Source: a virus. From it: DNA of 64,000 nt. Below, piece after piece: positions 5,678-49,930 of the stretch. The notes under the pieces were generated by a model, which saw nothing but the letters and a program-made list of their open reading frames with translations, was not told the origin of the DNA and made no database searches. The position numbers and the translations under genes are program-made. The stretch covers positions 37,631-101,630 of IMG/VR virus record IMGVR_UViG_3300045988_144418. One strand, given 5' to 3'. The first letter of the stretch is position 1. Each line of letters begins with the position of its first letter.

Positions 5678-6047
5678 GTTAAAGTTACTGGCTGACTCCT
5701 TAGGAATAGGTGCTGTGTCAGCGGAGGTTGAAAAGATTATGCTTCAGGAACAGCAGGTGTCAACGGAAACGGTTCTTCGTCTGCTTGGCGAGTTGCTGTC
5801 AATGCTGTCCACTATGGGCAGAAGGATGATGCACTTTAGGGACAGGACAGGCCAGATTCTTTCCAAGGGCTTTATCATTATGTTCCGTAAGAGTGAGACA
5901 GTTGAGGGTGAGCCTACTATTGTTATCAATGACTTTGGTGCAGGACTAAAGGCGGAGAACAACCCTGTTATAGAACTGGAGCTTGTTTATGACGATGTTG
6001 ACGTGCGTGATGAGGACTTTGACACGTTATTATTAATGAAAAACTAA
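5658..6047 (+). CDS. hypothetical protein
   Basis: ORF track 5646..6047 starts at TTG; first ATG is at 5658. No motif recognised, and its position beside HNH/terminase is the only context. Confidence 0.4.
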   Translation: MKEILIKLKLLADSLGIGAVSAEVEKIMLQEQQVSTETVLRLLGELLSMLSTMGRRMMHFRDRTGQILSKGFIIMFRKSETVEGEPTIVINDFGAGLKAENNPVIELELVYDDVDVRDEDFDTLLLMKN

Positions 6048-6060
6048 AAATGATTTTGTT

Positions 6061-6720
6061 ATGAATTCCACGATTAGGTACATAATTGTTGGTGACAGTG
6101 AGACTGGAGGGCTTCCTAATAAGGGCAAACAGGCTTTCTATGACATTGCACTGTGTGAATTTGCCTTTGTCGTTATAGATATTCAGGAAATGAAAGTGGT
6201 GGAGGAATGGAGTACACTCTTTAGACCCTATAAGGACAATCTTGAGTATAACCCCCAGGCACTTGAGGTCAATGGTCTTACGGTTGAACAGTTGCAGAAA
6301 AGCGGTGATGACCTGAAGAACATCTATAAGGAAATGATCATGTTGTTTAAGAAGTATAAGAATCCTCGTATAGGAGCGGTACTTGCAGGACATAATTTTC
6401 AGCCGTTTGATATGCCTTTTCTCACTAATATGTTTGAGTTTTGCGGTGATAGCATCTGGAATTATGTCACGTTCGTGGAGGACACCATGAAGCTGGCTTG
6501 GTATCGTGCCAAGGAGCAGGAAAATTACAAGCTCGGAACGTGCTGTCGTATGGAGGGTGTTGATTTGGTTAACGCTCATCGTGCGCTTGCTGACACAAAG
6601 GCGAACGCCCTGTTGCTTTTGAAATACATTTCCTATATGCGTGGCTCTGGAGAGGGTTCGAGCGTTGCGATTCCAAGAATGAAGCCGTCTTCCTTTAGAG
6701 AGACCTTTCAACTTGTGTAG
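6061..6720 (+). CDS. DnaQ-like DEDDh 3'-5' exonuclease
   Basis: ExoI VGDSETGG, ExoII HNFQPFDMPFL, ExoIII HRALADTKANA. Confidence 0.75.
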   Translation: MNSTIRYIIVGDSETGGLPNKGKQAFYDIALCEFAFVVIDIQEMKVVEEWSTLFRPYKDNLEYNPQALEVNGLTVEQLQKSGDDLKNIYKEMIMLFKKYKNPRIGAVLAGHNFQPFDMPFLTNMFEFCGDSIWNYVTFVEDTMKLAWYRAKEQENYKLGTCCRMEGVDLVNAHRALADTKANALLLLKYISYMRGSGEGSSVAIPRMKPSSFRETFQLV

Positions 6721-6722
6721 TG

Positions 6723-8822
6723 ATGATTGAGTTTAATGAGAATAACAGTCTTTCTTTTCGGCAGCTGGATAGTATTATAGACACCACAACGAGAATAGTG
6801 CAGAATCTCCCTGTAAAAGCCATAAATCAGCTTATGGAGGGGTATAGGGGGGATCAGGATGCTATGTTGTCAGAGATGTTTCGTCAGACAGAGAATGTTC
6901 TGAAGTTGAACACTACATTGGAAACTGAACGTCTTTCCTATGTCGATCAGCTTATTGAGAGCATGGATGAGTCCTTGAAGATAATGTCATACAATTACTT
7001 CAAGACTACAATGCTTCCTAATTTTAGACAGGGGTGGAGAAATCTTGAGTGGGGTAATATGATTCAGCTGTACCCGAATAGTGCTTATCTTGCGGCTCGT
7101 TCTCATGGGAAGTGCTTTTTGGCTGGAACTCACATCTTGATGGCTGATTGGACAGTGAAGAATGTGGAGGACATCTATCCTGGGATGGAGGTGATGGGTA
7201 TGGACTTTACCCCAAGAAAGGTTTTCACACGGCATATTGGTCGGTCACAGATGTTTACGGTGCACCAGGAGAATGGCATTTCCTATACCGTGAATAGATT
7301 CCACATTCTCTGCCTATGGGATACAAAGAGGAAACACTATGTTGAGGTTCCGATGGGAAATTTTCTGAAATATCCTCAAGAAAAACAGAATAGGTTTAGA
7401 GGGTACAGAGTGTTTTCGAGCGACAACCCTATACTGGAATATTCTCCTATAGCGGTTGAACCGTATGGTGATGGATCCTACTATGGTTTTGCCTGTGACG
7501 GTGATCATAAGTTTCTTCTGGAGGACAATACTGTTGTTCATAATTCGTATGAATTTTGTATGGGGCTTCCTCTGTGGAGGATGTACTCCTATCGTAGACC
7601 AAATTTTATGAAGCCTGATATTCCGGACAATAGGAATAGAAAGGAAACTTGCATTATAACCAACACGGAGACACTCGGTAAGGAGCATCTGGATAAGATT
7701 AAGGAGGAGATTCATACCAATGAAGCACTTTCAGCGGTGCTTAATCCGAACGGCAAGGCTTCGCTTGGAGCTACTGGCTTTGAGTGTGAGAATGGATCCA
7801 AACTGCATCTTAGAGGGAAGGACGGATTCATTCGAGGTCTTCACGTGGGTGCGGCTGTGTCTGATGACCTCCCTGATGATAGCTCCATCTATAGTCTGGA
7901 GCAGAGAGAGAAGTTGAGAGACCTGTTTAAGGGTGCTATCACCCCTATTGTAGAGCCGTATGGATATAATATCGTGGATGGCACACCGTATCAGGCACAG
8001 GATCTTTATTATGAGTTGAAGCAGGATCCGAAATTTATGGTGTTTGAGTATCCAGCCATATTTCCTGACGGCAGACTTTTGGCACCTGATCGTTTTACGT
8101 TTGACAAGTTGATGGAGGAAAAGAAGTCCGTGGGTACGCTTGTGTTTAGCCGTGAGTATCTTGTTGTTCCTATTTCTGACGATTCCACCATTTTTCCTAT
8201 GGAGATATTAATGCGAAGCACGATAGGAATGGAGAATGTGCGACTTGTAGATAATATTGAATCGTTTCCATTCAAGTTGTCCAGAGTGGTTGTAGGGTGT
8301 GATTTTGCCGTGTCAGGAAATGTGGGTGCTGACTACACTTGTTATACGGTATGGGGGAAGGATTTGAATGGTTCCTATTATCTTCTGTACATCTATCGGG
8401 AAAAAGGTTTGTCACATAATGAGCAGATAAACAAGATAGAGTACTTGAACACGGTGTTTAAGCCGAATGAGATTGTGGTGGAGAATAACGGTTTTCAGTC
8501 CATTCTTGCTGATATGTGTGTACAGAGAGGAATCAAAAATATATATCCGTTTACCACTACTTCAGGAAACAAGAAGGACTTGCGAACAGGGTGGGCGTCG
8601 CTTGCAGCTCTATTTGAGAGAGGTGATATACGATGTCCGTATCATCCTGACACACGACAGAGGATAGACACTATGTTTGGGGAGTTTACATCTATTGCGT
8701 TTCGTTCTGATAAAGGTACACTGGAATCCATTAGCGGTCACGATGACACAGTATCATCCTCGTTTATGGCAATAAATAGATTACGTGAATCAGCTGTTCA
8801 GATAAAGGTTGATGCAGTATAA
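6723..8822 (+). CDS. terL: terminase large subunit, intein-containing
   Basis: The Walker-A loop AARSHGK|S is interrupted by an intein. The C-terminal half looks like an RNaseH-fold nuclease region (VVGCDFAVSG...DYTCYTVWG, GHDDTVSS). ATG at 6723; the track's GTG at 6720 overlaps the upstream stop. Confidence 0.8.
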   Translation: MIEFNENNSLSFRQLDSIIDTTTRIVQNLPVKAINQLMEGYRGDQDAMLSEMFRQTENVLKLNTTLETERLSYVDQLIESMDESLKIMSYNYFKTTMLPNFRQGWRNLEWGNMIQLYPNSAYLAARSHGKCFLAGTHILMADWTVKNVEDIYPGMEVMGMDFTPRKVFTRHIGRSQMFTVHQENGISYTVNRFHILCLWDTKRKHYVEVPMGNFLKYPQEKQNRFRGYRVFSSDNPILEYSPIAVEPYGDGSYYGFACDGDHKFLLEDNTVVHNSYEFCMGLPLWRMYSYRRPNFMKPDIPDNRNRKETCIITNTETLGKEHLDKIKEEIHTNEALSAVLNPNGKASLGATGFECENGSKLHLRGKDGFIRGLHVGAAVSDDLPDDSSIYSLEQREKLRDLFKGAITPIVEPYGYNIVDGTPYQAQDLYYELKQDPKFMVFEYPAIFPDGRLLAPDRFTFDKLMEEKKSVGTLVFSREYLVVPISDDSTIFPMEILMRSTIGMENVRLVDNIESFPFKLSRVVVGCDFAVSGNVGADYTCYTVWGKDLNGSYYLLYIYREKGLSHNEQINKIEYLNTVFKPNEIVVENNGFQSILADMCVQRGIKNIYPFTTTSGNKKDLRTGWASLAALFERGDIRCPYHPDTRQRIDTMFGEFTSIAFRSDKGTLESISGHDDTVSSSFMAINRLRESAVQIKVDAV
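7113..7544 (+). mobile_element. mini-intein (144 aa, no homing-endonuclease domain) in the terminase P-loop
   Basis: Starts with Cys (tgc at 7113-7115; CFLAGTHILMADW). Ends ...YYGFACDGDHKFLLEDNTVVHN (aat at 7542-7544), followed by the +1 Ser (tcg at 7545-7547). These are classic block A and block F/G signatures. Confidence 0.8.
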
Positions 8823-11904: not shown

Positions 11905-12360
11905 ATGATTAAGGTAAGGATTTTTAATGAAAGTAAGTTTCTGGGGTCGGAGTATTTTCCAGAATATAAGAGTTTGGGTGCGTCAGGCGTGGATCTTAGG
12001 GCTGACATCGGTGAGGATATTGTGCTTCATCCAATGCAGCGAATGTTGATTTCAACAGGTCTGCGAATAGCTATTCCTCAGAATTATGAGGCACAGGTTC
12101 GCTCTCGTTCAGGGCTTACAGTGAAGAACGGTGTTATTGTTCTTTCTCCAGGTACCATAGATAGTGATTATAGAGGGGTTATTGGTGTTCCTTTGGCCAA
12201 TCTGGGTGATGAGGATTTTGTAATTCATAGAGGGGATTGTATTGCACAGCTTGTTTTTCAGAAAGTGGAAAGAGTTTGGTTTGAGGGTGTCAGCTCTATT
12301 GAAGCACTTGGTCTAACTGATCGCGGTGAAGGAGGCTTTGGTCATACAGGCGTGAAATAG
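11905..12360 (+). CDS. dut: dUTP diphosphatase (trimeric dUTPase)
   Basis: Canonical motifs GASGVDLRA, SRSGL, GTIDSDYRG, DRGEGGFGHTG. Confidence 0.9.
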   Translation: MIKVRIFNESKFLGSEYFPEYKSLGASGVDLRADIGEDIVLHPMQRMLISTGLRIAIPQNYEAQVRSRSGLTVKNGVIVLSPGTIDSDYRGVIGVPLANLGDEDFVIHRGDCIAQLVFQKVERVWFEGVSSIEALGLTDRGEGGFGHTGVK

Positions 12361-12379
12361 AAATTTTCAAGAATATTCT

Positions 12380-12409
12380 TTGGATATCTAAGATAAGTGA
12401 CTATATTTG
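12380..12409 (+). promoter_or_regulatory. conserved phage promoter, copy 1
   Basis: TTGGATATCTAAGATAAGTGAC-TATATTTG, with the leader ...aattaaatca... before the ATG at 12446. Confidence 0.6.
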
Positions 12410-12445
12410 CACTGTGAAATTTTAACAATTAAATCAAAAACGTTT

Positions 12446-13039
12446 ATGGAACAGAAAGAATTGTCCGTAAGGATGAAAATTCGTAAGTTTAAGAATGACG
12501 CTGCCAAGCTGTCAGAAATCATTGAGTCAGAGGCTTCCACCGAACTGGAAAAGAAAGTGGCTTCGGAGTATCTTGCCAAGTTGCAGGAACTCCCGCAGTC
12601 TGAACAGCCAGAAGCACCGCAAGCTCCGGAGGAGACGACACTTTTTCCTGAGGAAGAGGAGAAGTCAGCCCCTAAGAAGGAAGAGTCTATCAGTTCCGAG
12701 CTTACTCCTGAGGAAGTCGCTCGTCTTGATGCAGCGGAGAAGAAGTTCGATGAGCGTCAGGCCAGTCGTAAGACACCATCAAAGGGTGACAAGAATATGC
12801 GTGAGGAGCGTAAGAAGAAAAGTTCAACGGCTAATCTGCATGAGGGCAAACGTGAGAATCTTGAAGAATCCACGGAGGTTCCTGGTCTGAAGGTTGGTTC
12901 TACTGTAAAGGTGGGTAATGAGGAAGGCTCTGTCATTCGTGTCTATCGTAGCACCGACGGCAAGGAGAAGTGTATGGTCAAGATCGGAGACGGCAAGCCT
13001 GTCAAGAAGCGTGTTACTTCCGTGGAACTTGTAAAATAG
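12446..13039 (+). CDS. hypothetical Lys/Glu-rich protein with small beta-rich C-terminal domain
   Basis: The track start at 12407 is a TTG inside the promoter -7 box; first ATG is at 12446 (MEQKELSV). Low-complexity E/K/P middle. Confidence 0.5.
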   Translation: MEQKELSVRMKIRKFKNDAAKLSEIIESEASTELEKKVASEYLAKLQELPQSEQPEAPQAPEETTLFPEEEEKSAPKKEESISSELTPEEVARLDAAEKKFDERQASRKTPSKGDKNMREERKKKSSTANLHEGKRENLEESTEVPGLKVGSTVKVGNEEGSVIRVYRSTDGKEKCMVKIGDGKPVKKRVTSVELVK

Positions 13040-13048
13040 TCGGGATTT

Positions 13049-13783
13049 ATGGTTACGGATTCAGGAACCATAATTCTTATCAAGGGGGTCAGTGGAAGCG
13101 GTAAATCCACAAGGGTTTATTGCTTCCTTGATTTCCTGGAAAGCATTGGAATGAAACTGAAGCCATATCAGTTTGTGAATATACTTGGACAGACACAGGA
13201 GATAGGCTTGTATTCAGAGGAGTTGAATATGCTTTTTCTGGGAAAGTTCTATGACGACAATGGTGTTCGTAGGTGGCAGGGGTTGGATGCTGTTACAGGG
13301 CGATTGCACACGGCTGAGGGTCTTTCCTATTTCCTGAAGTGGGCTGGTCAGCGGAAGTTGAATGTTGTGCTGGAGGGGGCTGGAACGTCCGTGACGTGGC
13401 GATTGCGTCCGATGGAGATATGTGCCGAGTATGAGTATCTAAATATTCTCTATTTGGTCTATACGTTCAAACTGGAGCAGTATGATGACTATATCAGGAG
13501 AATAGAGTATCGCTCGGGCAAGGCTCCGAAAAGCGACGCTATGTGGCGGAAGCGCAAGGGGTTTGAATCAGACTATACTCAGACTGTTGCGGAAGCGAAG
13601 GACTTGAATGCAGCAGGAGCGGACATTGTCATCAAGTACAATCTTTTCGATGTTGAAGCATGGGATCTCGGTGTAAGCATTATGCAGTATTTCGGTCTTG
13701 ACGAGTTGTGCGATGAGTTCAAGCTGTTTGTGGAGGGTGGTGGTTATATTGGGCAGAATTCCTATGAAAACATTGGTAGATGA
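13049..13783 (+). CDS. P-loop kinase (candidate 5-hmdU DNA kinase-type enzyme)
   Basis: Walker A IKGVSGSGKST near the N-terminus. It overlaps the next gene by 4 nt. The function is inferred from context only. Confidence 0.5.
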   Translation: MVTDSGTIILIKGVSGSGKSTRVYCFLDFLESIGMKLKPYQFVNILGQTQEIGLYSEELNMLFLGKFYDDNGVRRWQGLDAVTGRLHTAEGLSYFLKWAGQRKLNVVLEGAGTSVTWRLRPMEICAEYEYLNILYLVYTFKLEQYDDYIRRIEYRSGKAPKSDAMWRKRKGFESDYTQTVAEAKDLNAAGADIVIKYNLFDVEAWDLGVSIMQYFGLDELCDEFKLFVEGGGYIGQNSYENIGR

Positions 13784-14793
13784 GTAAAATAGTTCCAAAT
13801 GACAATTTGACGTACCTCTTCTATTGGTGCTGTGAACGAATGAACATATTCTGGAAGCGGTATAATGGAGAGCAGTATCCATGGACTGATGATGAGATAT
13901 TACAGCAGTATAAGTTCACAAATGTGTATCGGGTGCTGGATAGGTCAAGTCAGTATATGCTTCGTAACGTTATCTATAATGGTAAGCAGTATTCTCCGGA
14001 GGATATGTTTTTTCGTATTTTACTTTATAAGCATTTTAATCTTCCTGACACGTGGGGTGCCCTGATTAAGGAGTTTGGTGATATTACATACGACACCGGA
14101 TGGGAGAACATTGCACGTTTTCTGGATGATAGAGGTAGACAGGACATCACCATCTATTCTAATGCCTTTATGTTGACAGGGTGGTTTTATTCTCTTCCGG
14201 AGTATGCTAATATTCGTGGGACTTCAAAACATCGTGGATATTTTGAGGTGTTTAAGCGTCGAATTTTTGATAATGGTAAGATTGATGCTTTTCTCAGTGC
14301 TGCAAGTTTTGAAGAGCTTTTTGGTATGTTTAAGGAGCTTGAACCATTTAGCGACTTCATGTCACAGCAGTATTGTCTTGACATGAATTATTCCCCTTTA
14401 TACAACTTTACTGAGAATGACTTTGTGGTTGTCGGCCCTGGAAGTAAAAGGGGGATTCAATTTGCATTTAAGGGGGATCATAGAGATGACGGTGAAGTTG
14501 TTATCAGGTGGATGCAGGAGCACTTTGAGGAACTGATGACAAAGTTCTGTCAGGATTCAGGTATGATTTGGAATCCATTGCCGTGGGAGCCAGTGCCTAC
14601 ACTGACGAACATTCAAAATTGTTTTTGTGAGCTATCAAAGTATGCTAAATGTATGGGTGTGCAGTTTAAGAAGAATACTAAAGGTAGGATGAAAAATCTT
14701 TATACTACACCAAAATCAGAAATTTCTTATATGTTTCCACGGAAATGGAATGTTAAGATGCCGTTAAAAGGGCAGATAGAAACTTATAAATAA
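13780..14793 (+). CDS. DNA base hypermodification-family protein (aGPT-Pplase / 5-hmdU-kinase helical-domain-like)
   Basis: The N-terminal pattern ERMNIFWKRYNGEQYPWTDDEILQQYKFTNVYRVLDRSSQ resembles, from memory, proteins annotated as putative DNA base hypermodification / nucleotide kinase domain proteins. Not verified by search. Confidence 0.4.
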   Translation: MSKIVPNDNLTYLFYWCCERMNIFWKRYNGEQYPWTDDEILQQYKFTNVYRVLDRSSQYMLRNVIYNGKQYSPEDMFFRILLYKHFNLPDTWGALIKEFGDITYDTGWENIARFLDDRGRQDITIYSNAFMLTGWFYSLPEYANIRGTSKHRGYFEVFKRRIFDNGKIDAFLSAASFEELFGMFKELEPFSDFMSQQYCLDMNYSPLYNFTENDFVVVGPGSKRGIQFAFKGDHRDDGEVVIRWMQEHFEELMTKFCQDSGMIWNPLPWEPVPTLTNIQNCFCELSKYAKCMGVQFKKNTKGRMKNLYTTPKSEISYMFPRKWNVKMPLKGQIETYK

Positions 14794-14802
14794 AAAACGA
14801 TT

Positions 14803-15930
14803 ATGGATTTTGTATTTGATAATCTTAGTCAGGCTTTTGTTGGGCTTTTAAGGGATCTTAAGGCTTTTGGTACTTGGACACAGAGGGGAACCAATTCAGC
14901 AGGAAATATGTGCTTGGAATTTCCAGAGCCAGTGCTTATAAAGATATATAATCCACTGAATAGATATGTTTTTGTTCCGGAGCGCAAGTGGAACAAGACG
15001 TTGGGGTGGATTGAATCACTCTGGATTGCCAGAGGTGACAACTCGCTTGAAATGCCGTCAGCCTATGTCAAGAACCTGTTGACGTTCTCCGATGACGGTG
15101 AGACAATGCGTGCAGGATACGGCCCGAGGATTCGTGCCTTTGGTGGTCATCTGTGGAAGAAAGGTGTTCGATTTGAAGAGGGTTCACCGCTATACTGGAT
15201 GAAGCAGCAGTATGATTCCAGATATGGGAATGGTACGGTTGCCGTTGTGGATCAGTTGAAATTTGTGATTGACAAATTTAAGCAGGATCCAACCACGAGG
15301 GAGGCTGTCATTACGATTCATGACCCTATGGCTGATGACTTCAGTGGCAAGGAGATTCTTAGAACGAAGGACACCCCTTGCACACGCTCCATTCACTTTA
15401 TGATCGTAGATGGCAAGATGAACTGTTACGTGGATATGAGATCTAATGATCTGTTCTGGGGCTTCAGTGCTGTCAATGTCTTCAATTTCACTTTGATGCA
15501 GGAGTATGTCGCCGCGATGGTGGGTGTGCCTGTGGGGGTATATTATCACAAAGTTGATAATTTGCACATGTACGAAGGATCTTTGCCTATGGCTAGGAAT
15601 ATTACTTCTATTTATGGAACAATGGCAGCAGTTGAAAAATGGTCTGACTTATATAGTTTTGATGAGGAATTAGATTGGCACGGTTATAAACATACATTTA
15701 CCACATTGGAGGTCTTTGACAATCTAATAGCGTTGCTATCTGAGTTTGAGCGTGGGATGCGTGGTGTCGATGATTTGCCGTACAGCAAGGATGAAGCTCT
15801 GGAAACAATGAACATGATGTTTGGGGGTGAGCCGATGTTTATGGACTGGGCAAAGGTTATCTATCGTAAGTGGTCAAAGGACACGACCGTGACATTTGAC
15901 AATCCGTATCTGACAAAGTTATTTGTCTGA
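14803..15930 (+). CDS. thymidylate synthase-family enzyme (ThyA-like; possible dUMP hydroxymethylase)
   Basis: Catalytic-Cys context KDTPCTRSIHF and MRSNDLFWGFSAVNVFNF (compare TS QRSxDxxLGxPFN). The 375-aa length includes a C-terminal extension beyond typical ThyA. Confidence 0.7.
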   Translation: MDFVFDNLSQAFVGLLRDLKAFGTWTQRGTNSAGNMCLEFPEPVLIKIYNPLNRYVFVPERKWNKTLGWIESLWIARGDNSLEMPSAYVKNLLTFSDDGETMRAGYGPRIRAFGGHLWKKGVRFEEGSPLYWMKQQYDSRYGNGTVAVVDQLKFVIDKFKQDPTTREAVITIHDPMADDFSGKEILRTKDTPCTRSIHFMIVDGKMNCYVDMRSNDLFWGFSAVNVFNFTLMQEYVAAMVGVPVGVYYHKVDNLHMYEGSLPMARNITSIYGTMAAVEKWSDLYSFDEELDWHGYKHTFTTLEVFDNLIALLSEFERGMRGVDDLPYSKDEALETMNMMFGGEPMFMDWAKVIYRKWSKDTTVTFDNPYLTKLFV

Positions 15931-16050
15931 AGTTACTTTGTAGAAACCATAAGAACAGCCGTGCAACCTCTGGTCGGGAAGCCTGTGATAGGTAAGGAGG
16001 AAGTTCGAGACTTCTCACGGCTGCAAGAACTAAATAAAAATGATTTCGTT

Positions 16051-16590
16051 ATGAACTACAAAAAGATTGACTATCTACTTCAGATGAAGCAGATACAGAG
16101 ACTTCCAAATGTCCCCCATCATAGAAGTTATAATATTCTTGAGCACAGCTTTGTAGTCGGTATGCTTTTCAGGTGGTTTGCTTCCGCCTGTGATGTCTCC
16201 TACGATATAAATGTGTGGGATAAGGTGCTTATGCACGACTATCTTGAAGCATTTACAGGGGATTTGAACTTTGTTGTTAAGAATTTGACAGAGAAGACAT
16301 CAAGTGCGTGGGCGACGATAGAGAAGGAGGTCTGTGATCATGACACTGTTTTGAATCATTATTCTGATGAAGCCATAAAGTCCGCCATGACGGAGGAGCA
16401 GCGCATTCTCTTTAAGGTGTGTGACTATCTTGATTTGTGGATTTTCTGCAAGCAGGAGGAGGCACTTGGTAATACCACGATTGGAAACAAGACCGTTATA
16501 GATAACTGTAAGAAGCTCATCTATGGTCTCTGTGGGCAGGATAGAAAGTGGTTTCCTATCTTTGATTTTATGTGCAAATATACAGCGTAG
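16051..16590 (+). CDS. HD-domain phosphohydrolase, YfbR-like 5'-deoxynucleotidase
   Basis: HHRSYNILEHSFVVG and LMHDYLEAFTGDLNFVVK match the YfbR-type H..HD..D pattern. The ATG at 16051 follows the aaaaatgatttcgttATG motif; the track start at 15961 is a GTG. Confidence 0.6.
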   Translation: MNYKKIDYLLQMKQIQRLPNVPHHRSYNILEHSFVVGMLFRWFASACDVSYDINVWDKVLMHDYLEAFTGDLNFVVKNLTEKTSSAWATIEKEVCDHDTVLNHYSDEAIKSAMTEEQRILFKVCDYLDLWIFCKQEEALGNTTIGNKTVIDNCKKLIYGLCGQDRKWFPIFDFMCKYTA

Positions 16591-16592
16591 CT

Positions 16593-17255
16593 ATGGATGA
16601 AAGAACCCCAGTTGAGATATATGCCTTTGTCGGGGTGATTGGCTCCGGCAAGAGCTATCGGCTTGAGCAGATGAAGAGAGAATACAATGGTGTCGGTCAG
16701 GTTGTCATTACCGCTGACTTTTCAGATGGTATTCGAGATCTAACACGTCAGCTTTTGGGGTATGGTGCTAACTTCGGTGATGTGAATTCACAGGAATATC
16801 GTGACTGGAAGGAGAACGTGGCCTGTGTGACAGTTCACAATGGAGCGGTGGTGAATTCTTTCACTGGACGTGATGTGTTGCGTAATGTGGGAGAGTCCAC
16901 GAAGTGTATTGCAGGTCAGAACGTGTGGGCGAGATATACGACACAGTCCTTATATTCACGCATAGCGTATCAGGCATTTCGCTCTGATTTATGTGTGAGT
17001 GGTGTTCGGGTGCTTATAGGGTCAGTGCGATTCAAGTGCGAGGCTCGGAGCATATTTGAGCTCTTTAGCGATGTAGCAGCCAATATGGATAGCTTTATGA
17101 ATCCGTCCTTGCACTTTATATTCTGCGACTATCACTCGTCGAGCTATGATGCGGCAAGTGGTCACGTCAGTGAGGCACTTGCACAGATCGTGTTGAATAC
17201 AGGCAAGTACAAGGATGGTGATGATATCACCGAACTGATAGACACAATGGTATGA
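16593..17255 (+). CDS. P-loop dNMP kinase-like protein
   Basis: N-terminal Walker A YAFVGVIGSGKSY. The ATG at 16593 is 2 nt after the upstream stop. Function assigned by analogy with phage dNMP kinases. Confidence 0.45.
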   Translation: MDERTPVEIYAFVGVIGSGKSYRLEQMKREYNGVGQVVITADFSDGIRDLTRQLLGYGANFGDVNSQEYRDWKENVACVTVHNGAVVNSFTGRDVLRNVGESTKCIAGQNVWARYTTQSLYSRIAYQAFRSDLCVSGVRVLIGSVRFKCEARSIFELFSDVAANMDSFMNPSLHFIFCDYHSSSYDAASGHVSEALAQIVLNTGKYKDGDDITELIDTMV

Positions 17256-20200
17256 GACAGGAATTTGAACAGTATCTACAGAGGAACCTGATGTCATATA
17301 CGGAGGTCAGTCCTTATGTGTATGAAATAGATGGTAGGACATTCGAACTCTATAAGCCTGACAATGATGGCGCATTGTTTGACGATGACTTCAGGTTTAC
17401 AGGCATTCCGGCCAATTTAGCGAGATACACCTCCACTGAGAAAACGGTGGACACACAGTGTGACTTTTATGCCTATAAGTTTGGAGGAGTGTGGTATATG
17501 CTTCCAAGGGATGATAGAGACAAGGTTAAGTTGAAGCGCCTGAAATATCTTGGGGAAGCGGTGCAGGAGATTCCAACACCTGTCTTTATGGGTGTTCATG
17601 GTCAGTATGAGATTATGTCGGGCTCCGGAACGTATGCTGATTGGTGTGCAAAGGCGAAGTTCTACGGTGTTACGACACTTGGTATCTGTGAGAAGAACAC
17701 TTTGTCGGGTGTCTTGAAATTTCAGGTGGAATGTCAGAAGAACGGCCTGAAGCCTGTTATCGGGATGGAATGCACTGTATATGATATTGTCAAGGACTTT
17801 AGGTTCACGGCCAAGGTGTTTGTCAGAAATGAGGTGGGTTGGCAGAGCATCCTCACTATGTCGGAAGCCATTAACTGTGATAATCCTGGGTATATTCTCA
17901 TTGACCAGTTTAGAGAGGAAATAAGCCGAAATGCGGAAGGATTGGTGGTGGTTGCAGACCCCAAGACGACTGACTATGACAAGTTCGCTGAAATCGGTCT
18001 AAAAATAGATTACTATCAACTTGACCCTGTTAGATATGCGGAAGAATCTCGTGATGAAGTGTATTTGAAGAACCTGAGAAAATTTTATCATAGTGGTATG
18101 CTTGCTCTTCCTATGGCTGATGCTTGGTATCTGGACGAGGAGTATAGCTGTATCAGATCGAGACTTGCAAGCATAGGTGGATCTAACTTTTATGACAGTG
18201 ATGATCAGTGGTTTAAGCCGAATGATGTATTGTTCTGTCAGCTTGCTGACATGTTTCCAAGCACGGATGATGGTCTGGGGCTTGCGTACCAGGACTTTTT
18301 AGATGGGCTTGAAAGGTTGATGGATCTTGCTGATAGCATTGGCTTTATCGTGGACACAACCAAACGCCATCTTCTACGCTACATTATGACAGAGGATGAA
18401 GCCGCTAAGTATGTCACCAATGAGGATATGTTCTGGGGGCTTATTGACGAGGGACTTCAGCGGCATCCTGAGCTGATTGAACAGTACGGTGAGGATGTGG
18501 TGATGGAACGCATTGATAGAGAAGTTGGTGTAATTAAGTTGGGGGATACAATCGATTACTTCCTAATTACGAGGGATATTGTGAATTGGTGTCATCATAA
18601 TGATATTATGACAGGTATATCCAGAGGTTCGGCAGGAGGGTGTCTTATCTCGTATCTTCTTGGGATCACAAAGTTGGATCCAATAGGCTATAATCTACTT
18701 TTTGAGAGGTTTTTGAACGAGGGTCGTGTAAAGAAAAGTCTTCCTGATATAGATACGGATTTCCCTGGAGAAGACCGAGGAAAAGTCAAGCAGTATATGG
18801 AACAACGATTTGGGGAGGTTAATGTCTGTTCTGTGGGTACTTATTCCGCCTTGCAGCTGAGAGCGGCTATCAAGGACATGTCTCGTGTGTATGGGCTGGA
18901 GTTTCAAGAGGTGAATGATATGATGAAACTCTTTGCCGTGGATGATCGTAAGCCTGAAGACCTGTTTAGGATAGCGTGTGCACAGCCACGTGTGAAGAAG
19001 TTTGTTAGAGAGCATTCTGACTTGGTGAATGAGGTGATGCTGATTATGCCAGCCCCCAAGGCACGTTCCGTTCACGCCTGTGCCACTATGATATTTCCGA
19101 AGGAGCACGATATGTTTCACTGGACACCTATTCGCAAACAGAACGGAGAGTATGTGACTGAGTGGGAGGGTGGTGAAATGGACGGTGCAGGATTTCTGAA
19201 GAATGATATCTTGGGTATTAAGCAGCTTGATAAATTTCAGAATATGGTGCGTCTTGTCAAGGAGAACGAGGGTGTTGATGTGGATATTTTCAATGTGCCG
19301 CTTGACGATTCAGAGGTGTATCGTTACTTTCAGAACGGCTGGACGGAGGATAATTTTCACTTCGGCTCTCGTGGTTTGACAGGCTACTGTAAGGAGATGA
19401 AGCCTGAAAACATAGAGGACTTGATTGTGGCCATCGCCCTGTATCGTCCTGGAGCAATGGAGAACGGCTTCCATACGGAGTATGTTAAGCGTAAGGAGGG
19501 TGCGCCTGTAAGTTACTTTGTAGGTTCCGAGGAAATTCTTTCCAATACTTATGGGATTTTCTGTTTTCAGGAACAGATCATGGAGTTGTGTAAGCATCTT
19601 GGGGGGCTTTCACTTGTGGAAGCTGATGACGTGCGAAAGGCGATGGTGAAGAAGAAGTACGAAGCACTTCATCAGTATCATCCAAGATTTGTTGACAACT
19701 ATGTGACACAGTTCGGTGTCACGAATGAATATGCTGAAAGTGTGTGGGATGCTATTGACAAGGCTTCCACTTACCTGTTTAACCGTTCTCATGCTGTCGC
19801 CTATGCTCTTACTGGCTATATCTCGCAGTGGATGAAAGTACACTACCCAATAGAATACTGGAGTGTTGCGTTCAAGGAAGCGATGACGGAGGATTACCCT
19901 CGCTATATTGCTGAGATTAACAAGACAGGTGTCTGCACGGTGAGGTCTGTGGATATCAATCTGTCGGGAACAGGCGTGTATATTGACTTTGCGGCCAGAA
20001 CGCTCTATTGGTCTGTCACAGGCGTTAAGCAGGTGGCTGAAAAGGCGGCTACACAGATACTCAAGGAACGTGATGAGAATGGTAGGTATTGGTCTTTGGA
20101 TGACTTTGTGACACGACATAAGTGGAAAGGGTCAGCGGTGAACACGAGGGTTGTGCAGAATCTTATTCTCGCAGGGGCATTTGATGACGTGGAGAACATC

Positions 20201-20734
20201 ACTGATGCCTCTCAGAGGGTGGAACTATTGATATCCTATCTTGCTTCCACAAAAAACAAGTTGAATGAGACTGATCCTATTATAGCAGGGTTTGACATTC
20301 ACAGGAATGATGCTTGGTGGTGGCAGCTTATGCAGAAGAAACTTTCAGGGCTTGCATTCTTTGACTATGCAGGTCTTTATGACAAGGTGAAGCAGTTTTT
20401 CCCTGTTGACTATGAGTATTATACCTTTGAGGAATGTAGTGACGTGGAATATCGTCCTAACAGGGGATATGTCATTGTTGGTGGGTATGTGTCAGCGATA
20501 GACCTGAAAAAAACCAAGAAAGGAGACATTCTATGCCGTATAACACTGGAGAACAACTATGAGTTTCTGGACTTGGTTGTATTCCAGACGGAATATGAGC
20601 GGCTTCAGGAGGAGATTGCTGCAAGCAAGGATAATATCGTGCTTTTGAATGCAACACTTTACTATGACGCACGGAATGATAAAAACGCCTTGCGTGCTGA
20701 TATGGAGACATCCATTGTGACATTTAAGTTATAA
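17252..20734 (+). CDS. dnaE: DNA polymerase III alpha subunit (DnaE-type, N-terminal PHP domain)
   Basis: 1160 aa. PHP start FMGVHGQYEIMSGSGT, palm signature GRVKKSLPDIDTDFP, then GISRGSAGGCLISYLLGITKLDP and FNRSHAVAYA. Confidence 0.85.
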   Translation: MRQEFEQYLQRNLMSYTEVSPYVYEIDGRTFELYKPDNDGALFDDDFRFTGIPANLARYTSTEKTVDTQCDFYAYKFGGVWYMLPRDDRDKVKLKRLKYLGEAVQEIPTPVFMGVHGQYEIMSGSGTYADWCAKAKFYGVTTLGICEKNTLSGVLKFQVECQKNGLKPVIGMECTVYDIVKDFRFTAKVFVRNEVGWQSILTMSEAINCDNPGYILIDQFREEISRNAEGLVVVADPKTTDYDKFAEIGLKIDYYQLDPVRYAEESRDEVYLKNLRKFYHSGMLALPMADAWYLDEEYSCIRSRLASIGGSNFYDSDDQWFKPNDVLFCQLADMFPSTDDGLGLAYQDFLDGLERLMDLADSIGFIVDTTKRHLLRYIMTEDEAAKYVTNEDMFWGLIDEGLQRHPELIEQYGEDVVMERIDREVGVIKLGDTIDYFLITRDIVNWCHHNDIMTGISRGSAGGCLISYLLGITKLDPIGYNLLFERFLNEGRVKKSLPDIDTDFPGEDRGKVKQYMEQRFGEVNVCSVGTYSALQLRAAIKDMSRVYGLEFQEVNDMMKLFAVDDRKPEDLFRIACAQPRVKKFVREHSDLVNEVMLIMPAPKARSVHACATMIFPKEHDMFHWTPIRKQNGEYVTEWEGGEMDGAGFLKNDILGIKQLDKFQNMVRLVKENEGVDVDIFNVPLDDSEVYRYFQNGWTEDNFHFGSRGLTGYCKEMKPENIEDLIVAIALYRPGAMENGFHTEYVKRKEGAPVSYFVGSEEILSNTYGIFCFQEQIMELCKHLGGLSLVEADDVRKAMVKKKYEALHQYHPRFVDNYVTQFGVTNEYAESVWDAIDKASTYLFNRSHAVAYALTGYISQWMKVHYPIEYWSVAFKEAMTEDYPRYIAEINKTGVCTVRSVDINLSGTGVYIDFAARTLYWSVTGVKQVAEKAATQILKERDENGRYWSLDDFVTRHKWKGSAVNTRVVQNLILAGAFDDVENITDASQRVELLISYLASTKNKLNETDPIIAGFDIHRNDAWWWQLMQKKLSGLAFFDYAGLYDKVKQFFPVDYEYYTFEECSDVEYRPNRGYVIVGGYVSAIDLKKTKKGDILCRITLENNYEFLDLVVFQTEYERLQEEIAASKDNIVLLNATLYYDARNDKNALRADMETSIVTFKL

Positions 20735-28934: not shown

Positions 28935-30068
28935 ATGGGTCTTTTTGAATTTATAGCTAAATCACGTTCTGGAGTTTATAAGAATACTTCAGAAAATCGT
29001 AGACTCCATCGTGTGGGGCAAAGATATGGTGAGCAGAGGCAACTGGCGGATGAGGGTGAACTGATTCCAGGAATGCCTAATTTCACCAAGGTGAATCTGA
29101 AGAAGTATTTGTCTGACAAGATAAAGAAACAGGTGGATGACTATATTGTTAATGTCTCAACCACTCCAGGATGGAATAATCCTGAGCAGGTCTCCCTTAT
29201 GGTAAAAGTTGTGCAGAAGCACTTCAATGAAGCTTTTGATGATATGACCAAGGCGCAGAGAGCCTACTGGGTGGAATTGGCAAAGCGGCTTTTGGGGCGA
29301 ATGGAATCTCTTAATGCAGGTGGCGACAAGGAGGAATCCGTTAAGCCTGAAGAGACACCAAAGCCTACATTGAAGGAACGTGTTGACAATTTTGAACAGA
29401 AGGAAAAAGCGAAGAATATCTTTGAACAGGCAGCACAGAAGTACGGAATTGAACATGGTAAGCCGATGTCCATTGATAGAGCTGATCGTAAGCACGCCAA
29501 CCCGAAATTTCTGACGCTTGTAGATGGAAGTTTTCGTCCATACACTTCAAACTGTCAGACCTGTGTGGTTGCCTATGAACTTCGTAAGAGGGGTTATGAC
29601 GTTGAAGCAAAGGGTGTTGGTGTTAAGCCGAAGTCCTATGTAAATAATTTTCAAAGAGAAATGGCCTATGATAGTACCTTTGCTTTTGCTGATAAGGATA
29701 TAGATCTTATTAGGCCGAACTTTACAGGTGAGATTAAGTTCAATACGGATAAGGGTCGTAGGCAGTTTCGAATGAAAATTTTTGACGCCATAAAAGAGCA
29801 GGGAACTTATTTCTTATCTTTTAAGAACAAGGGGCGTCAGAGTGGTCATATTGTGGTGCTTGAACACACGACTAATAATTTTTTGTTGATAGATCCACAG
29901 TCCAATAGAAGAATTGATCTTAAATCTGACGAATTCATGCAGTATCTTGCTGGAGTGGATGTTACACATAAAAATAATAGACTATTTAGGGTGAATGACT
30001 TGACATTCAAACCTGAGGTATTTTCTGTGATGGAAAAGGCAAATACAGAACCAGATATATATGATTAA
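28935..30068 (+). CDS. effector with shared N-terminal leader and C-terminal papain-fold toxin-like (glutamine-deamidase-like) domain
   Basis: N-terminus MGLFEFIAKSRSGVYKNTSENRRLHRVGQRYG is shared with the 30355 gene. The C-terminus has TSNCQTCVVAYELRKRGYDV ... SGHIVVLEHTTNNFLLIDPQSN, a Cys...His...Asp pattern that resembles, from memory, the Pfam 'papain fold toxin 1'. Confidence 0.5.
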   Translation: MGLFEFIAKSRSGVYKNTSENRRLHRVGQRYGEQRQLADEGELIPGMPNFTKVNLKKYLSDKIKKQVDDYIVNVSTTPGWNNPEQVSLMVKVVQKHFNEAFDDMTKAQRAYWVELAKRLLGRMESLNAGGDKEESVKPEETPKPTLKERVDNFEQKEKAKNIFEQAAQKYGIEHGKPMSIDRADRKHANPKFLTLVDGSFRPYTSNCQTCVVAYELRKRGYDVEAKGVGVKPKSYVNNFQREMAYDSTFAFADKDIDLIRPNFTGEIKFNTDKGRRQFRMKIFDAIKEQGTYFLSFKNKGRQSGHIVVLEHTTNNFLLIDPQSNRRIDLKSDEFMQYLAGVDVTHKNNRLFRVNDLTFKPEVFSVMEKANTEPDIYD

Positions 30069-30354: not shown

Positions 30355-31083
30355 ATGGGTTTATTTGAATACATAGTTAAGTCCAGATCAGGTGTCTATA
30401 AGGATAATTCTGAAAATAGGCGGCTTCACAGGGCTGGACTGCAATATGGTCAGAAAAAGCAGCAGGAAAGCGTTCCTGATGTAAACAAGAAGGATCTTGA
30501 ACTTGCGGAAGCAAAGGTTAAGAAAATGCTTGTCGTGAAGCAGAACTTTGATGATGTTTCACAGGCGGTGTGTCAGGAGGTTGGCTGTATTGTTTCTCCT
30601 ACTAATATTAAAAAGCCCGTAAGAATTGCTCAGAAAATGGCTTCTGATGGTTCTACTATTGATGAGATTAAGGATGTTATGCGTAACACCTTTGTTGTTA
30701 ATAGTGACGATGATGTTGGCAAGGTTATAGAAGCCATATCCAAGCATTATAAAGTTGTTAGGGTAAAGTATCAAACGCCCGACAGGTTCGCTGGATATAG
30801 CGGCAATATTGTCAATGTGGAGCTTCCTAATGATGAAATTGGTGAAATGCAGGTGAATACGCCACAAATGATATTTGGCAAGGAAGTTGAACGTGATGCC
30901 AGAATGATTTTGGGTGATGGCCTATGGGAACGATTGAAAGCCAATGCAGGAAATCTTATTCCAGGACTTGGTCATAGGATGTATGAGGTGCTTCGGGATG
31001 ATTCCATTGACGATGAAAGGCTTGATATTGTCGAACGCAATAGTAGAATTTATTATGATAGAATTAGAAAGATTTCGCTATGA
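30355..31083 (+). CDS. effector with shared N-terminal leader and RelA/SpoT-like nucleotidyltransferase (small alarmone synthetase / toxSAS-like) domain
   Basis: N-terminus MGLFEYIVKSRSGVYKDNSENRRLHRAGLQYG. Synthetase-like motifs: KKPVRIAQKM, IKDVMRNTFVV, AGYSGNIVNVEL, IGEMQVNTPQMIF (compare DIxGxRV, GYRSxH, EIQIRT). Confidence 0.6.
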   Translation: MGLFEYIVKSRSGVYKDNSENRRLHRAGLQYGQKKQQESVPDVNKKDLELAEAKVKKMLVVKQNFDDVSQAVCQEVGCIVSPTNIKKPVRIAQKMASDGSTIDEIKDVMRNTFVVNSDDDVGKVIEAISKHYKVVRVKYQTPDRFAGYSGNIVNVELPNDEIGEMQVNTPQMIFGKEVERDARMILGDGLWERLKANAGNLIPGLGHRMYEVLRDDSIDDERLDIVERNSRIYYDRIRKISL

Positions 31084-48270: not shown

Positions 48271-48340
48271 AGTAGAGACAGGTGCATAATTAAATCTTAT
48301 CACCCTCGATAAGCAGAACTTATAGTTGATCATAATTGAT

Positions 48341-48388
48341 AGACACACAGAGAATCCGGAGATTGGTCTTGACCCTGTGTGTCTTTTC
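48341..48388 (+). terminator. rho-independent terminator (long loop)
   Basis: agacacacag...ctgtgtgtct followed by tttc. Confidence 0.55.
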
Positions 48389-48414
48389 GTGTGAACTCCG
48401 TAGGATGTTCACAC
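48389..48414 (+). other. hairpin (8-bp stem)
   Basis: gtgtgaac-tccgtaggat-gttcacac. Confidence 0.6.
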
Positions 48415-48416
48415 AT

Positions 48417-48439
48417 GGAACGTTCGAACAGAACGTTCC
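48417..48439 (+). other. hairpin / palindrome (9-bp stem)
   Basis: ggaacgttc-gaaca-gaacgttcc. Confidence 0.6.
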
Positions 48440-49131
48440 CCAACTCCCTGATATTCAGAACACTTCACTATTTCTATGATAAGCATTTCTTATAATGGGT
48501 GATAATCCTTCCTTATATGGAGCACTTGAATACAGGCATTGAGGGTGTGGAGGTGAATGACATCAAGGGAGAGGGTTCAGTCAGGAGACTCGGTTTAGGA
48601 GGGTATGGAATGGGTTTAGGAGGAGAGGGTCGGTTGGGGTGTATTGATTCAGGTTCAGTATGGGGTATCTTGAGGTCGGTTTGGATTGAGAGGTTCTGGG
48701 TATTTAGAGCCGTGCGGAACCATCCGCTCCCAAATCCCTTTCGCTCACGTCGTGGCTGTTTTCGGGCGAAATTAGCCGATGACAGGGTGCTTCCGACATG
48801 GATGCACCACCTATGAGCGGCCAGTTCCCTAAACTCCGGGATTTTCGGTACTTAACGGAAGCTCATCGGGATAGGCGGATGCCGAGATTTTGTGAAAAAC
48901 TGGGTGTGAAAATGCCGTGAAAAATATAATTCGCTGATAATGAGTGACTGATTTCAAATGTTAAGTGGTTGATACCAAAATCCCGGAGAGTATTAAAACG
49001 AAATTAAGCAAAAATCCCGAAATTACGTAAAATGTTAAGCAGTTTTTGAAGTCCGTTCCTATAACTCCACTCAGGTATCCCGAGTTATGATGATTAAAAT
49101 TGTAAGTAATAGAATTTTCGTGAAAACTTCA

Positions 49132-49161
49132 TTGGATATTCAAGAAAATACACCAACTTTG
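49132..49161 (+). promoter_or_regulatory. conserved phage promoter, copy 6
   Basis: TTGGATATTCAAGAAAATACAC-CAACTTTG, with the leader gtaatcgttaaaatcattaaa. Confidence 0.6.
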
Positions 49162-49189
49162 CACCGTAATCGTTAAAATCATTAAAATT

Positions 49190-49453
49190 ATGGATGCACA
49201 GAAACAACTTCAGGAGCGTATCAGATGTTCCGAAGCTTTGATTAAGGGGCTGGATTTGCAGATTAGTCAAAAAATCAACGAACTTCATAATCTGCAGAGC
49301 CGTATGGTAAGGAATAGGGATAGGCTTGCTGCCATCAGGGACGCAAGGGGCGGCATCTACGATAAGTGGTATCGGCATCATAGGGAGGACAATTTTGCAT
49401 ACGACACACAGTGGGAAATAGAGAAAGGGCTTATGTTGTTAGAGGGGGTATGA
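49190..49453 (+). CDS. hypothetical coiled-coil protein
   Basis: 87-aa ORF right after a promoter plus leader motif. Confidence 0.5.
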   Translation: MDAQKQLQERIRCSEALIKGLDLQISQKINELHNLQSRMVRNRDRLAAIRDARGGIYDKWYRHHREDNFAYDTQWEIEKGLMLLEGV

Positions 49454-49506
49454 GGGTGAATTCAAGGTTGTGGAGGGGTAATAACTTTTGCTTATAATTA
49501 AAACTT

Positions 49507-49689
49507 ATGGATATGACACAGAAGGAACGAAACGCACACATCGTACGAAATGCGGTGGCCACGTCGGACACCGTCACAATACGTCTCGGGGATGGAACCG
49601 AGCTCTGCTTCTATCGCAGCCAAGCCTTGGCTGCACGGCAGTTCAGGGAGGAACTCGGCAGAATAGTGGAACAGTATCTATTGGCATGA
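49507..49689 (+). CDS. hypothetical small protein
   Basis: 60 aa with protein-like composition. Preferred over the overlapping frame 49488..49700, which is Gly/Arg/His junk. Confidence 0.4.
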   Translation: MDMTQKERNAHIVRNAVATSDTVTIRLGDGTELCFYRSQALAARQFREELGRIVEQYLLA

Positions 49690-49711
49690 CAAACCTATAA
49701 TCAGAATCTAT

Positions 49712-49876: not shown

Positions 49877-49904
49877 AACTGATGAGTGGAGAGCCTTGCT
49901 TCTC

Positions 49905-49926: not shown

Positions 49927-49930
49927 AAAA

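Follow-up and report, generated by a model that had tools for sequence, protein, structure and literature searches.

By hypermodifying thymidine, phages shield their DNA against restriction enzymes and defences of a similar kind, and the modification also influences the sequencing, the cloning and the therapeutic use of phage genomes. To our knowledge, the known pathways all run through a kinase that acts on 5-hydroxymethyldeoxyuridine (5-hmdU) in DNA (5-HMUDK) and a clade-2 transferase, and the enzyme that reverts phosphorylated 5-hmdU to thymine has been missing since the work on phages SP10 and phiW-14 of about 1980. Here we analyze a cluster of seven genes at positions 11905–17255 of a 64,000-nt stretch of viral DNA (IMG/VR record IMGVR_UViG_3300045988_144418, positions 37,631 to 101,630; hereafter the window), located directly 5' of a DnaE polymerase gene. 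The cluster is probably a nucleotide-pool and DNA-modification module by which 5-hmdU would replace deoxythymidine, with the base then being modified on the DNA polymer.

In the described systems, the 5-HMUDK and the clade-2 enzyme (ADDT) are necessary and sufficient for group transfer (PMC8989533). The kinase of phage ViI, gp243, was shown to transfer one phosphate onto 5-hmdU within DNA (Lee et al. 2021, PMC8989533), and the catalytic Cys of the ADDT is Cys247 in PaMx11 gp46 (PMC11472151). The kinase genes and those of the alpha-glutamyl-putrescinyl thymine pyrophosphorylase (aGPT-Pplase) type are restricted to hypermodifying phages and are absent from SPO1 (PMC5889632). The dTTPase and dCMP deaminase kinds of phiW-14 and SH-Ab 15599 have also been described (PMC13458397).

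The cluster compared with described systems

A sequence-only reading of the window had placed seven genes in a given order 5' of the DnaE gene, and each of the seven open reading frames (ORFs) was recovered with its coordinates, all on the + strand. They encode a trimeric-type dUTPase (11905–12360), a Lys/Glu-rich protein (12446–13039), a predicted 5-hmdU DNA kinase of the HMUD2 type (13049–13783), a protein of the Pfam family PF18723, HMUDK_hel (13780–14793), a predicted dUMP hydroxymethylase of the ThyA family (14803–15930), a YfbR-like HD 5'-deoxynucleotidase (16051–16590) and a P-loop kinase, possibly a deoxynucleoside monophosphate (dNMP) kinase (16593–17255). The thymidine replacement or hypermodification based on 5-hmdU that the reading proposed is supported by the predicted families of the kinase, the PF18723 protein and the ThyA homologue. 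Of the enzyme set that it expected, the predicted hydroxymethylase and 5-hmdU DNA kinase are present, whereas an aGPT-Pplase-type transferase and a dedicated dTTPase were not found in the window. Judged by homology, the system is of the known 5-hmdU thymidine-hypermodification kind, as a putative ADDT-less minimal variant that is closest to SP10.

In SP10, which makes alpha-glutamylthymidine, the kinase and PF18723 form one unit, fused in gp186. The pairing recurs with the two genes abutting in YuA (gp13/gp14), and overlapping in the window as ATGA, shared by the kinase stop and the PF18723 start, which is the 4-nt overlap noted in the sequence-only reading. Both SP10 and the window have a long ThyA-type hydroxymethylase (382 aa and, as predicted, 375 aa, respectively) and a DNA polymerase just downstream, and in neither was a clade-2 transferase detected (for SP10, PMC5889632 Table 3). 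They differ in the kinase, which is of the HMUD1 type in SP10 and of the HMUD2 type in the window, and in the large neighboring gp185 of SP10 (radical SAM according to Lee 2018), for which nothing equivalent is present in the window. SP10 belongs to the Herelleviridae and infects Bacillus, whereas the window belongs to a ~100-kb DnaE-encoding myovirus-like phage. The final base is known for SP10, whereas the system of the window is known from its genes alone.

The window shares with ViI, M6/YuA, PaMx11, phiW-14 and SH-Ab 15599 the pre-replicative logic of a dUMP hydroxymethylase and a dUTPase, as well as the 5-hmdU DNA kinase. A PF18723 paralogue accompanies the kinase in ViI (gp160-type) and in YuA gp14/M6 gp55, as it does in the window. 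Unlike these phages, the window has no ADDT that could be found and no tailoring enzymes (pyridoxal phosphate (PLP), radical SAM, FAD or acetyltransferase), and it carries an HD nucleotidase and a trimeric dUTPase where they have a dimeric dTTPase/dUTPase and a dCMP deaminase (PMC13458397). With SPO1/SP8, in which 5-hmdU is the final base, the window has in common the dUMP hydroxymethylase and the dUTPase and, as candidates, a nucleotidase that depletes dTMP and a dNMP kinase. The presence of the kinase and PF18723 in the window makes it unlikely that its DNA stops at plain 5-hmdU.

The ThyA homologue, a predicted dUMP hydroxymethylase

The 375-aa protein encoded at 14803–15930 belongs to the ThyA family (Pfam Thymidylat_synt, 3.7e-17; PHROG 5131, 9e-63). 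Its best sequence match in the PDB is the CMP hydroxymethylase MilA (9e-24), with the best thymidylate synthase (TS) at 9e-11. Against seven NCBIfam TS equivalogs it scores 37–66 bits for cut-offs of 108–427, and thus does not reach an equivalog score. SP10 gp188, the ThyA homologue of a phage that makes 5-hmdUTP, is 34% identical to it (117 bits).

The protein was aligned with SP10 gp188, YuA gp17, the Ackermannviridae enzyme of phiEa2809, Molly gp103, Montesquieu MONT_51, T4 deoxycytidylate hydroxymethylase (dCH) and E. coli ThyA, the last two references being checked as identical to PDB 1b49 and 1aob. In the ternary complex of T4 dCH, Asp145 replaces Leu143 of TS and activates the substrate water; compared with TS, the hydroxymethylases have lost the solvent shield based on Trp83 and lack the TS C-terminal tail (PMC6400193). 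In TS, Trp80, Trp83, Leu143, His147 and this tail serve in hydride transfer and in closing off the active site (PMC6400193). In the window protein the nucleophile is Cys193, and Asp190, at position −3 in the motif 'KDTPC', matches Asp145 of T4 dCH. The Asp and Cys of this motif are common to T4 dCH, SP10 gp188, YuA gp17 and the phiEa2809, Molly and Montesquieu enzymes. Leu and Phe occupy the positions of TS Trp80 and Trp83, Thr194 takes the place of His147 after the Cys, and where TS has its tail there is an extension of ~110 aa that is unrelated to it. These hydroxymethylase features are common to all six phage 'long ThyA' proteins in the alignment.

T4 gp42 and MilA likewise display the ThyA fold, the catalytic Cys, the Asp at −3 and the Thr after the Cys, and have no TS tail. 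They lack the C-terminal extension, which the window protein has in common with the SP10, YuA and ViI-like enzymes, and differ at the specificity residue. Asn225 of the window protein ('GFSAVNVFNF') aligns with Asn177 of E. coli TS, and with Asp in the cytosine-specific enzymes (Asp179 in T4 dCH). An Asn at this position indicates a uracil and not a cytosine nucleotide as the substrate, as the sequence-only reading had proposed from the same motif. That reading had left the choice between a methylase and a hydroxymethylase to be settled, and the comparisons point to the latter: the ThyA homologue is assigned to the pyrimidine hydroxymethylases and not to the thymidylate synthases, and is predicted to form 5-hmdUMP from dUMP and methylene-tetrahydrofolate.

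The best match of the ThyA homologue in a cultured phage is found in Maribacter phage Molly_1 (locus L011, 1288–6047). There, the ThyA-like gene directly follows genes for a UDP-glucose dehydrogenase, a nucleotide-sugar epimerase and a beta-glucosyltransferase. In the Molly enzyme, which is annotated 'thymidylate synthase' only, both the Asp of the hydroxymethylases and the Asn for uracil are present. The DNA of Molly may contain glycosylated 5-hmdU.

The predicted 5-hmdU DNA kinase

The protein encoded at 13049–13783, previously recognized as a P-loop kinase, retains an intact Walker A motif (GVSGSGKST). The family search that had been proposed for it gives a match to Pfam PF18747, HMUD2, '5-hmdU DNA kinase 2' (5.1e-22), with 78.9 bits against a cut-off of 25. 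It is homologous to ViI gp243, which was located in the Vi01 record by accession, with 32% identity over 181 aa (E 2e-19). By this homology, the kinase would act on 5-hmdU within DNA, placing phosphate on its 5-hydroxymethyl group to give the phosphorylated base 5-PmdU.

The PF18723 protein

For the protein at 13780–14793, the sequence-only reading had proposed a family carrying the names of a base hypermodification protein, a 5-hmdU DNA kinase helical domain and an aGPT-Pplase. The protein, which contains YPWTDDEILQQYKFTNVYRVLDR, matches Pfam PF18723 (HMUDK_hel) with 250 bits (E 3.8e-74). Depositors use the label aGPT-Pplase clade 1 for this family, which Pfam curators renamed '5-hmdU DNA kinase, helical domain'. 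The family assignment therefore stands, but the protein is not a member of the transferase clade 2 (PF18724). Membership of the validated transferase family, as the older 'aGPT-Pplase' name would imply, was rejected, as there is no PF18724 match and a control separates the two families: YuA gp10, the glycine:DNA transferase of the M6 gp51 type, matches PF18724 'ADDT' at 3e-48, and YuA gp14, of the M6 gp55 type, matches PF18723 at 8e-59.

Phage relatives of the protein include the C-terminal half of SP10 gp186, the ViI gp160-type protein, Microbacterium 'pyrophosphorylases' and the 'aGPT-Pplase clade 1' of Montesquieu (MONT_52). Pfam assigns PF18723 to all of them, and the link made by tblastn and Pfam extends to Se-J gp141. 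The family is large: at E <=0.001, a total of 5,024 clusters at 50% identity are represented in it. In a set of 153 representatives with pairwise identity <50%, the element Cys283-Glu284-x-x-Lys287 is kept in 148–150, in every fusion context, beside about a dozen further near-invariant polar residues. Residues R20, F46, N48, R51, D54, Q197 and D201, the motif GPGxxRG and C283-E284-x-x-K287 are conserved in 143–153 of the 153, and all are present in the window protein.

The AlphaFold2 model of the protein has a predicted local distance difference test score (pLDDT) of 94.3. A Foldseek search of BFVD with this model returned SP10 gp186 as the best match (E 5e-12, template modelling (TM) score 0.76), together with the phiW-14 protein gp72 (1.2e-7). 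Similarity to ADDT-domain proteins in BFVD is weak (E 0.012–0.6, probability 0.75–1.0, TM 0.38–0.47). In a colinear but non-significant profile alignment, Cys283 falls on the catalytic Cys of the ADDTs. Foldseek against the PDB gave nothing significant, the matches to helix-hairpin-helix (HhH) glycosylases being weak (best E 0.64), and phmmer and profile searches against the PDB gave nothing. Taken from the conserved residues and the model, the favored view is that PF18723 would be a Cys-dependent enzyme acting on the activated base. It is the sole candidate for an enzyme that acts after the kinase.

PF18723 also occurs in other settings. Triads of Nmad2, PF18723 and radical SAM genes are found at three loci (L130, 4984–7581; L132, 7403–9910; L133, 6585–9092), with PF18723 proteins ~40% identical to that of the window and no kinase or ThyA gene within the 9.6–17 kb shown. 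They are located among ThsB/TIR, SIR2-STALD, KAP NTPase and Mrr genes, in a setting that resembles a defense island. Because the triads have neither kinase nor ThyA, a different DNA-modification system appears to use the PF18723 domain. In the ViI-like Salmonella phage Se-J (L003, 3002–5137), a gene for a MazG-like pyrophosphatase lies directly 5' of the gp160-type PF18723 gene, and PF18723 is fused to MazG and MazG_C in three further proteins (P0167, P0171 and P0179). The adjacency and the fusions tie PF18723 not only to kinases but also to dNTP pyrophosphohydrolases. A nucleotide-pool role is one of the rival explanations of the function of PF18723.

Search for an ADDT and tailoring enzymes

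No candidate for an ADDT (PF18724) or for a PLP, radical-SAM, FAD, acetyltransferase or glycosyltransferase enzyme was found in the window with Pfam. The region outside the window was judged from a 102.5-kb relative, 97% identical at the left end of the window and 91% at its right end. This relative was walked outward until the circle closed, which covers ~37.7 kb beyond the window. The outside region encodes a Rep3 initiator, a portal protein, a NUDIX-domain protein, an SU10-type capsid protein, a tail-tube initiator, baseplate J and DUF5675, and Pfam revealed no ADDT or tailoring gene in these ~38 kb, the structural-looking ORFs U8, U10 and U11 being left out. In addition, a custom hidden Markov model (HMM) was built from four ADDTs and run with filters off against all six-frame ORFs of the window and the relative, where the best E was 0.37. 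The same HMM recovered its controls and, in another relative, picked up at 4e-52 an ADDT that carried no label.

Organization of the locus in relatives

In relatives whose PF18723 proteins are 39–97% identical to that of the window, the locus has a constant backbone of DnaB, primase and dUTPase genes, a cassette, PF18723, the ThyA-like and YfbR-like genes and DnaE. This shared gene order is far beyond chance. The variable part is the cassette between the dUTPase and PF18723, and PF18723 always adjoins the ThyA-like gene. In the window and in P0007, a cluster of 3,796 sequences, the cassette consists of an unlabelled protein of ~240 aa and the HMUD2 kinase. Other relatives combine the kinase with a homing endonuclease (P0031), with an unlabelled gene and an ADDT (P0056), with a GATase, an ADDT and an unlabelled gene with or without a low-molecular-weight (LMW) phosphatase (P0070), or with a GATase, an ADDT, an amidoligase and an acetyltransferase (P0041). 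In P0058 there is no kinase, and the cassette encodes a cytidylyltransferase-like protein and a glycosyltransferase. The minimal arrangement is widespread, as the size of the P0007 cluster indicates, which argues that it is maintained and is not a decayed remnant.

At locus L134 of a related phage (contig of GCA_900163725.1, 6080–8999), where the backbone is unchanged, genes for a cytidylyltransferase-like protein and a group-1 glycosyltransferase replace the kinase 5' of PF18723 and the ThyA-like gene, an arrangement that suggests a glycosylated 5-hmdU variant. A glycosyltransferase-PF18723 fusion of 829 aa also occurs (P0122).

Nucleotide-pool genes

The dUTPase matches Pfam PF00692 (6.2e-27) and PHROG 135 (2.3e-46), and passes the NCBIfam dUTP diphosphatase equivalog NF001862 with 160.7 bits against a cut-off of 103, which bears out its earlier identification. 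It is predicted to supply dUMP and to keep dU out of DNA. The Lys/Glu-rich protein has no match in Pfam, PHROGs or NCBIfam; the longest ORF of its gene begins at a TTG at 12407. In relatives, the slot between the dUTPase and the kinase holds a protein of ~240 aa without a Pfam label (240 aa in L137, 244 aa in L139), which is a positional counterpart only.

The YfbR-like assignment of the 16051–16590 protein likewise held (Pfam PF12917, 1.5e-16). Its H...HD...D motif was aligned with PDB 2paq, E. coli YfbR (3.6e-6), and on this similarity it is a candidate dTMP-depleting enzyme.

The last gene of the cluster (16593–17255) had been read as dNMP-kinase-like. It has a P-loop kinase fold, but membership of the dNMP kinase family is moderately to weakly supported, by PHROG 139 (4.9e-6) and, transitively, by distant relatives: of 22 members of its family, 3 match Pfam DNMK, the best at 9.3e-7. 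The AlphaFold2 model (pLDDT 90.4) retrieved solely generic nucleotide and small-molecule kinases with Foldseek, at E 1e-3 or worse. A tblastn search against phages and a phmmer search against the PDB gave no match, and there is no similarity to the 'dNMP kinase' of phiEa2809. A role as the dNMP kinase that would make 5-hmdUDP from 5-hmdUMP is plausible.

Outside the window, the 102.5-kb relative encodes, at 12729–14177 of its contig 'up' and between the portal and capsid genes, a 482-aa protein with a NUDIX domain (2.4e-15). This protein could remodel the dNTP pool, for example by dTTP hydrolysis, or could be a virion protein.

Proposed pathway and alternative explanations

In the pathway that we favor, the dUTPase would supply dUMP, the long ThyA homologue would convert it to 5-hmdUMP, and the 16593 P-loop protein or a host kinase would carry this towards 5-hmdUTP, while the YfbR-like HD nucleotidase would drain dTMP. 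The adjacent DnaE polymerase would then incorporate 5-hmdU into the DNA. On the polymer, the HMUD2 kinase would place one phosphate on the 5-hydroxymethyl group, by analogy with ViI gp243, to give 5-PmdU. The translationally coupled PF18723 protein, viewed as a Cys-bearing protein that is distantly related in structure to the amino-acid:DNA transferases, would most likely attack C6 of the activated base and resolve 5-PmdU either to thymine or to an adduct of a host metabolite. Sequence does not predict which base finally results.

Several points weigh against this pathway. It is derived throughout from homology. Pfam identifies in the window no dTTPase or dCMP deaminase of the kinds known from hmU phages, nor a dimeric dTTPase/dUTPase or a MazG, so that complete replacement of T is not assured. 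The check for an ADDT beyond the window used a relative of 91–97% identity and not this genome. As to PF18723 itself, Foldseek against the PDB misses the solved ADDTs 8z2m and 25qc, although both are in the PDB, and hhalign gives a probability of 0.6% for PF18723 against YuA gp10 and of 1.3% against five ADDTs; given these non-significant values, no PF18723-ADDT homology is claimed from sequence. PF18723 is fused to a group-1 glycosyltransferase, to MazG with MazG_C, to MT-A70 and to NADAR with an N6/N4 methylase, and further to thymidylate-kinase-like kinases and to radical SAM, and in the Nmad2 triads it occurs without kinase or ThyA. These varied contexts imply that its role may not be specific to 5-PmdU. 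Finally, M6 gp55 is dispensable in vitro, as reactions without gp55 still gave the group-transfer product (PMC8989533).

A further proposal, which we put forward tentatively, is that the kinase and PF18723 alone may constitute a complete, ADDT-independent post-replicative system. PF18723 would then be a Cys-dependent enzyme in its own right, which could form thymine or represent a second class of nucleophile:DNA transferase, and the bracket made by the two genes would be a hotspot where the exchange of tailoring cassettes diversifies the DNA chemistry.

It is rather unlikely, but deserves consideration, that the pathway stops at 5-hmdU or 5-PmdU, with PF18723 as a non-catalytic, HhH-like accessory that binds DNA or presents the base, and with 5-hmdU partly phosphorylated in virions. 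The Pfam name of the family is consistent with such an accessory, as are the weak HhH-glycosylase similarities, which are the only ones of the model in the PDB, and the association of PF18723, by fusion or adjacency, with partners as diverse as the kinase, glycosyltransferase, radical SAM, MT-A70, N6/N4 methylase and MazG. The dispensability of M6 gp55 agrees with it, and so does the activity of the SP10 kinase domain on its own (PMC8989533). On the other hand, the invariant Cys-Glu-x-x-Lys and the polar residues retained across 153 divergent representatives argue for an active site, the model bears a weak likeness to the catalytic ADDT fold with the Cys equivalently placed, and 5-PmdU has never been reported as the final base of virion DNA.

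The probability is low that the modification is transient, such that the kinase and PF18723 turn essentially all 5-hmdU to T before packaging and virions carry canonical DNA. Precedent exists in SP10, phiW-14, M6 and ViI, which convert non-hypermodified 5-hmdU to T via a phosphorylated intermediate by a gene that is unassigned (PMC8989533). A PF18723 protein is present in all four phages (PMC5889632 Table 3), and at the present locus PF18723 is constant whatever the tailoring cassette. Borohydride reduction of the methylene intermediate of the ADDT gives T (PMC8989533), so that the reaction is plausible in chemical terms for a Cys enzyme supplied with a hydride donor. However, no reductant-binding domain is recognizable in PF18723 with Pfam, a round trip from T to hmU and back would give incoming DNA no protection, and PF18723 also occurs in kinase-less contexts with a glycosyltransferase or with Nmad2 and radical SAM.

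That the cluster serves ordinary salvage, with a true TS, nucleotide kinases and canonical DNA, is hardly credible: the generic labels (Pfam Thymidylat_synt, PHROG 'thymidylate synthase' and 'guanylate kinase') would allow it, but it conflicts with the sub-threshold TS equivalog scores, with the hydroxymethylase residues in place of TS Trp80, Trp83, His147 and the C-terminal tail, with the HMUD2 score of the kinase and its homology to a validated DNA-base kinase, and with the cassettes that relatives carry at this locus, which encode ADDT, GATase, amidoligase and acetyltransferase.

Phage context and neighboring genes

The DnaE-type (Pol III alpha) replicative polymerase is encoded on the + strand at 17252–20734 (1160 aa); its counterpart in L137, 66% identical, has PHP, DNA_pol3_alpha, DNA_pol3_finger and HHH_6 domains. 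In L005, from a relative with 91% identity to the window in the PF18723 protein, DnaE appears as two ORFs of 545 and 645 aa (13478–17260), and this split could reflect a frameshift, an assembly error or an insertion. The Dam-type methylase that had been noted at 52797 is confirmed as a D12-class N6-adenine DNA methyltransferase (52797–53708, + strand; Pfam PF02086, 2.2e-41), and is a separate, second layer of DNA modification outside the cluster.

The remaining ORFs of the window were annotated with Pfam as concatenated ORFs. They encode a terminase with a Hint-type intein and a DnaB-like helicase, together with RecA, an SbcCD-like pair, an NAD-dependent ligase, an SNF2 helicase, RNase H and two UvrD helicases. 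GroEL, a Dps-like ferritin, an extracytoplasmic function (ECF) sigma factor and HU are also present, as are BACON, DUF4494 and DUF6549 domains. A putative primase ORF was read from the sequence, with no Pfam match. Nearly all genes of the window share one strand, and the GC skew is strongly positive throughout. The phage is described as an uncultured, ~100-kb, DnaE-encoding, myovirus-like phage with domains typical of Bacteroidota. A Bacteroidota host is inferred solely from the BACON, DUF4494 and DUF6549 domains; comparison of RecA with GTDB genomes was uninformative, giving 39–48% identity to many phyla. A megablast search of the cluster against GenBank phages gave zero matches, indicating that there is no close cultured relative. 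In IMG/VR, relatives have PF18723 proteins 86–96% identical to that of the window and contigs of 97–107 kb. Scans of the window for tRNA and Rfam matches were empty, and a literature search on the lineage or on hmU systems of gut phages returned nothing specific.

Three further features of the window were observed. At 48300–50250, between the region of a protein with a DnaA_C helix-turn-helix (HTH) and the gene at 50261, a stretch of ~2 kb in which tRNA and Rfam matches are lacking contains, on either strand, just ORFs of small size, and this may be a regulatory or origin region. The large terminase subunit (6720–8822, 700 aa) has a Terminase_6C nuclease domain, which the Hint-type intein segment (Hom_end_hint, 2.2e-14) precedes. 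The terminases of relatives are bigger: that of L131 has at least 913 aa and includes a LAGLIDADG domain, and that of L005 has 1127 aa, from which it follows that intein size varies within the lineage. Lastly, the proteins encoded at 28935–30068 and 30355–31083 have a near-identical N-terminus, MGLFE[FY]I[AV]KSRSGVYK..SENRRLHR[VA]G, one of them with a papain-fold Gln-deamidase domain and the other with a RelA/SpoT-like domain. The sequence NRRLHRVGQEYG is also found in a 598-aa protein adjoining the portal in the relative (contig 'up', IMGVR_UViG_3300045988_135457, 6024–7820). The shared N-terminus may be a targeting or packaging signal for effector proteins delivered by the virion.

Significance

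The window represents a natural minimal system of a hydroxymethylase and a 5-hmdU DNA kinase, both predicted, and PF18723, in which no ADDT or tailoring enzymes were found, and is thus a test case for PF18723. The minimal lineage is abundant in metagenomes. The comparison of relatives documents a modular, hypervariable modification locus in ~100-kb DnaE phages, a lineage on which the literature searched holds no paper. If, as tentatively proposed, the kinase and PF18723 suffice without an ADDT, PF18723 could be the long-unassigned activity that converts 5-PmdU to thymine in SP10, phiW-14, M6 and ViI, or the maker of an undescribed thymidine derivative.

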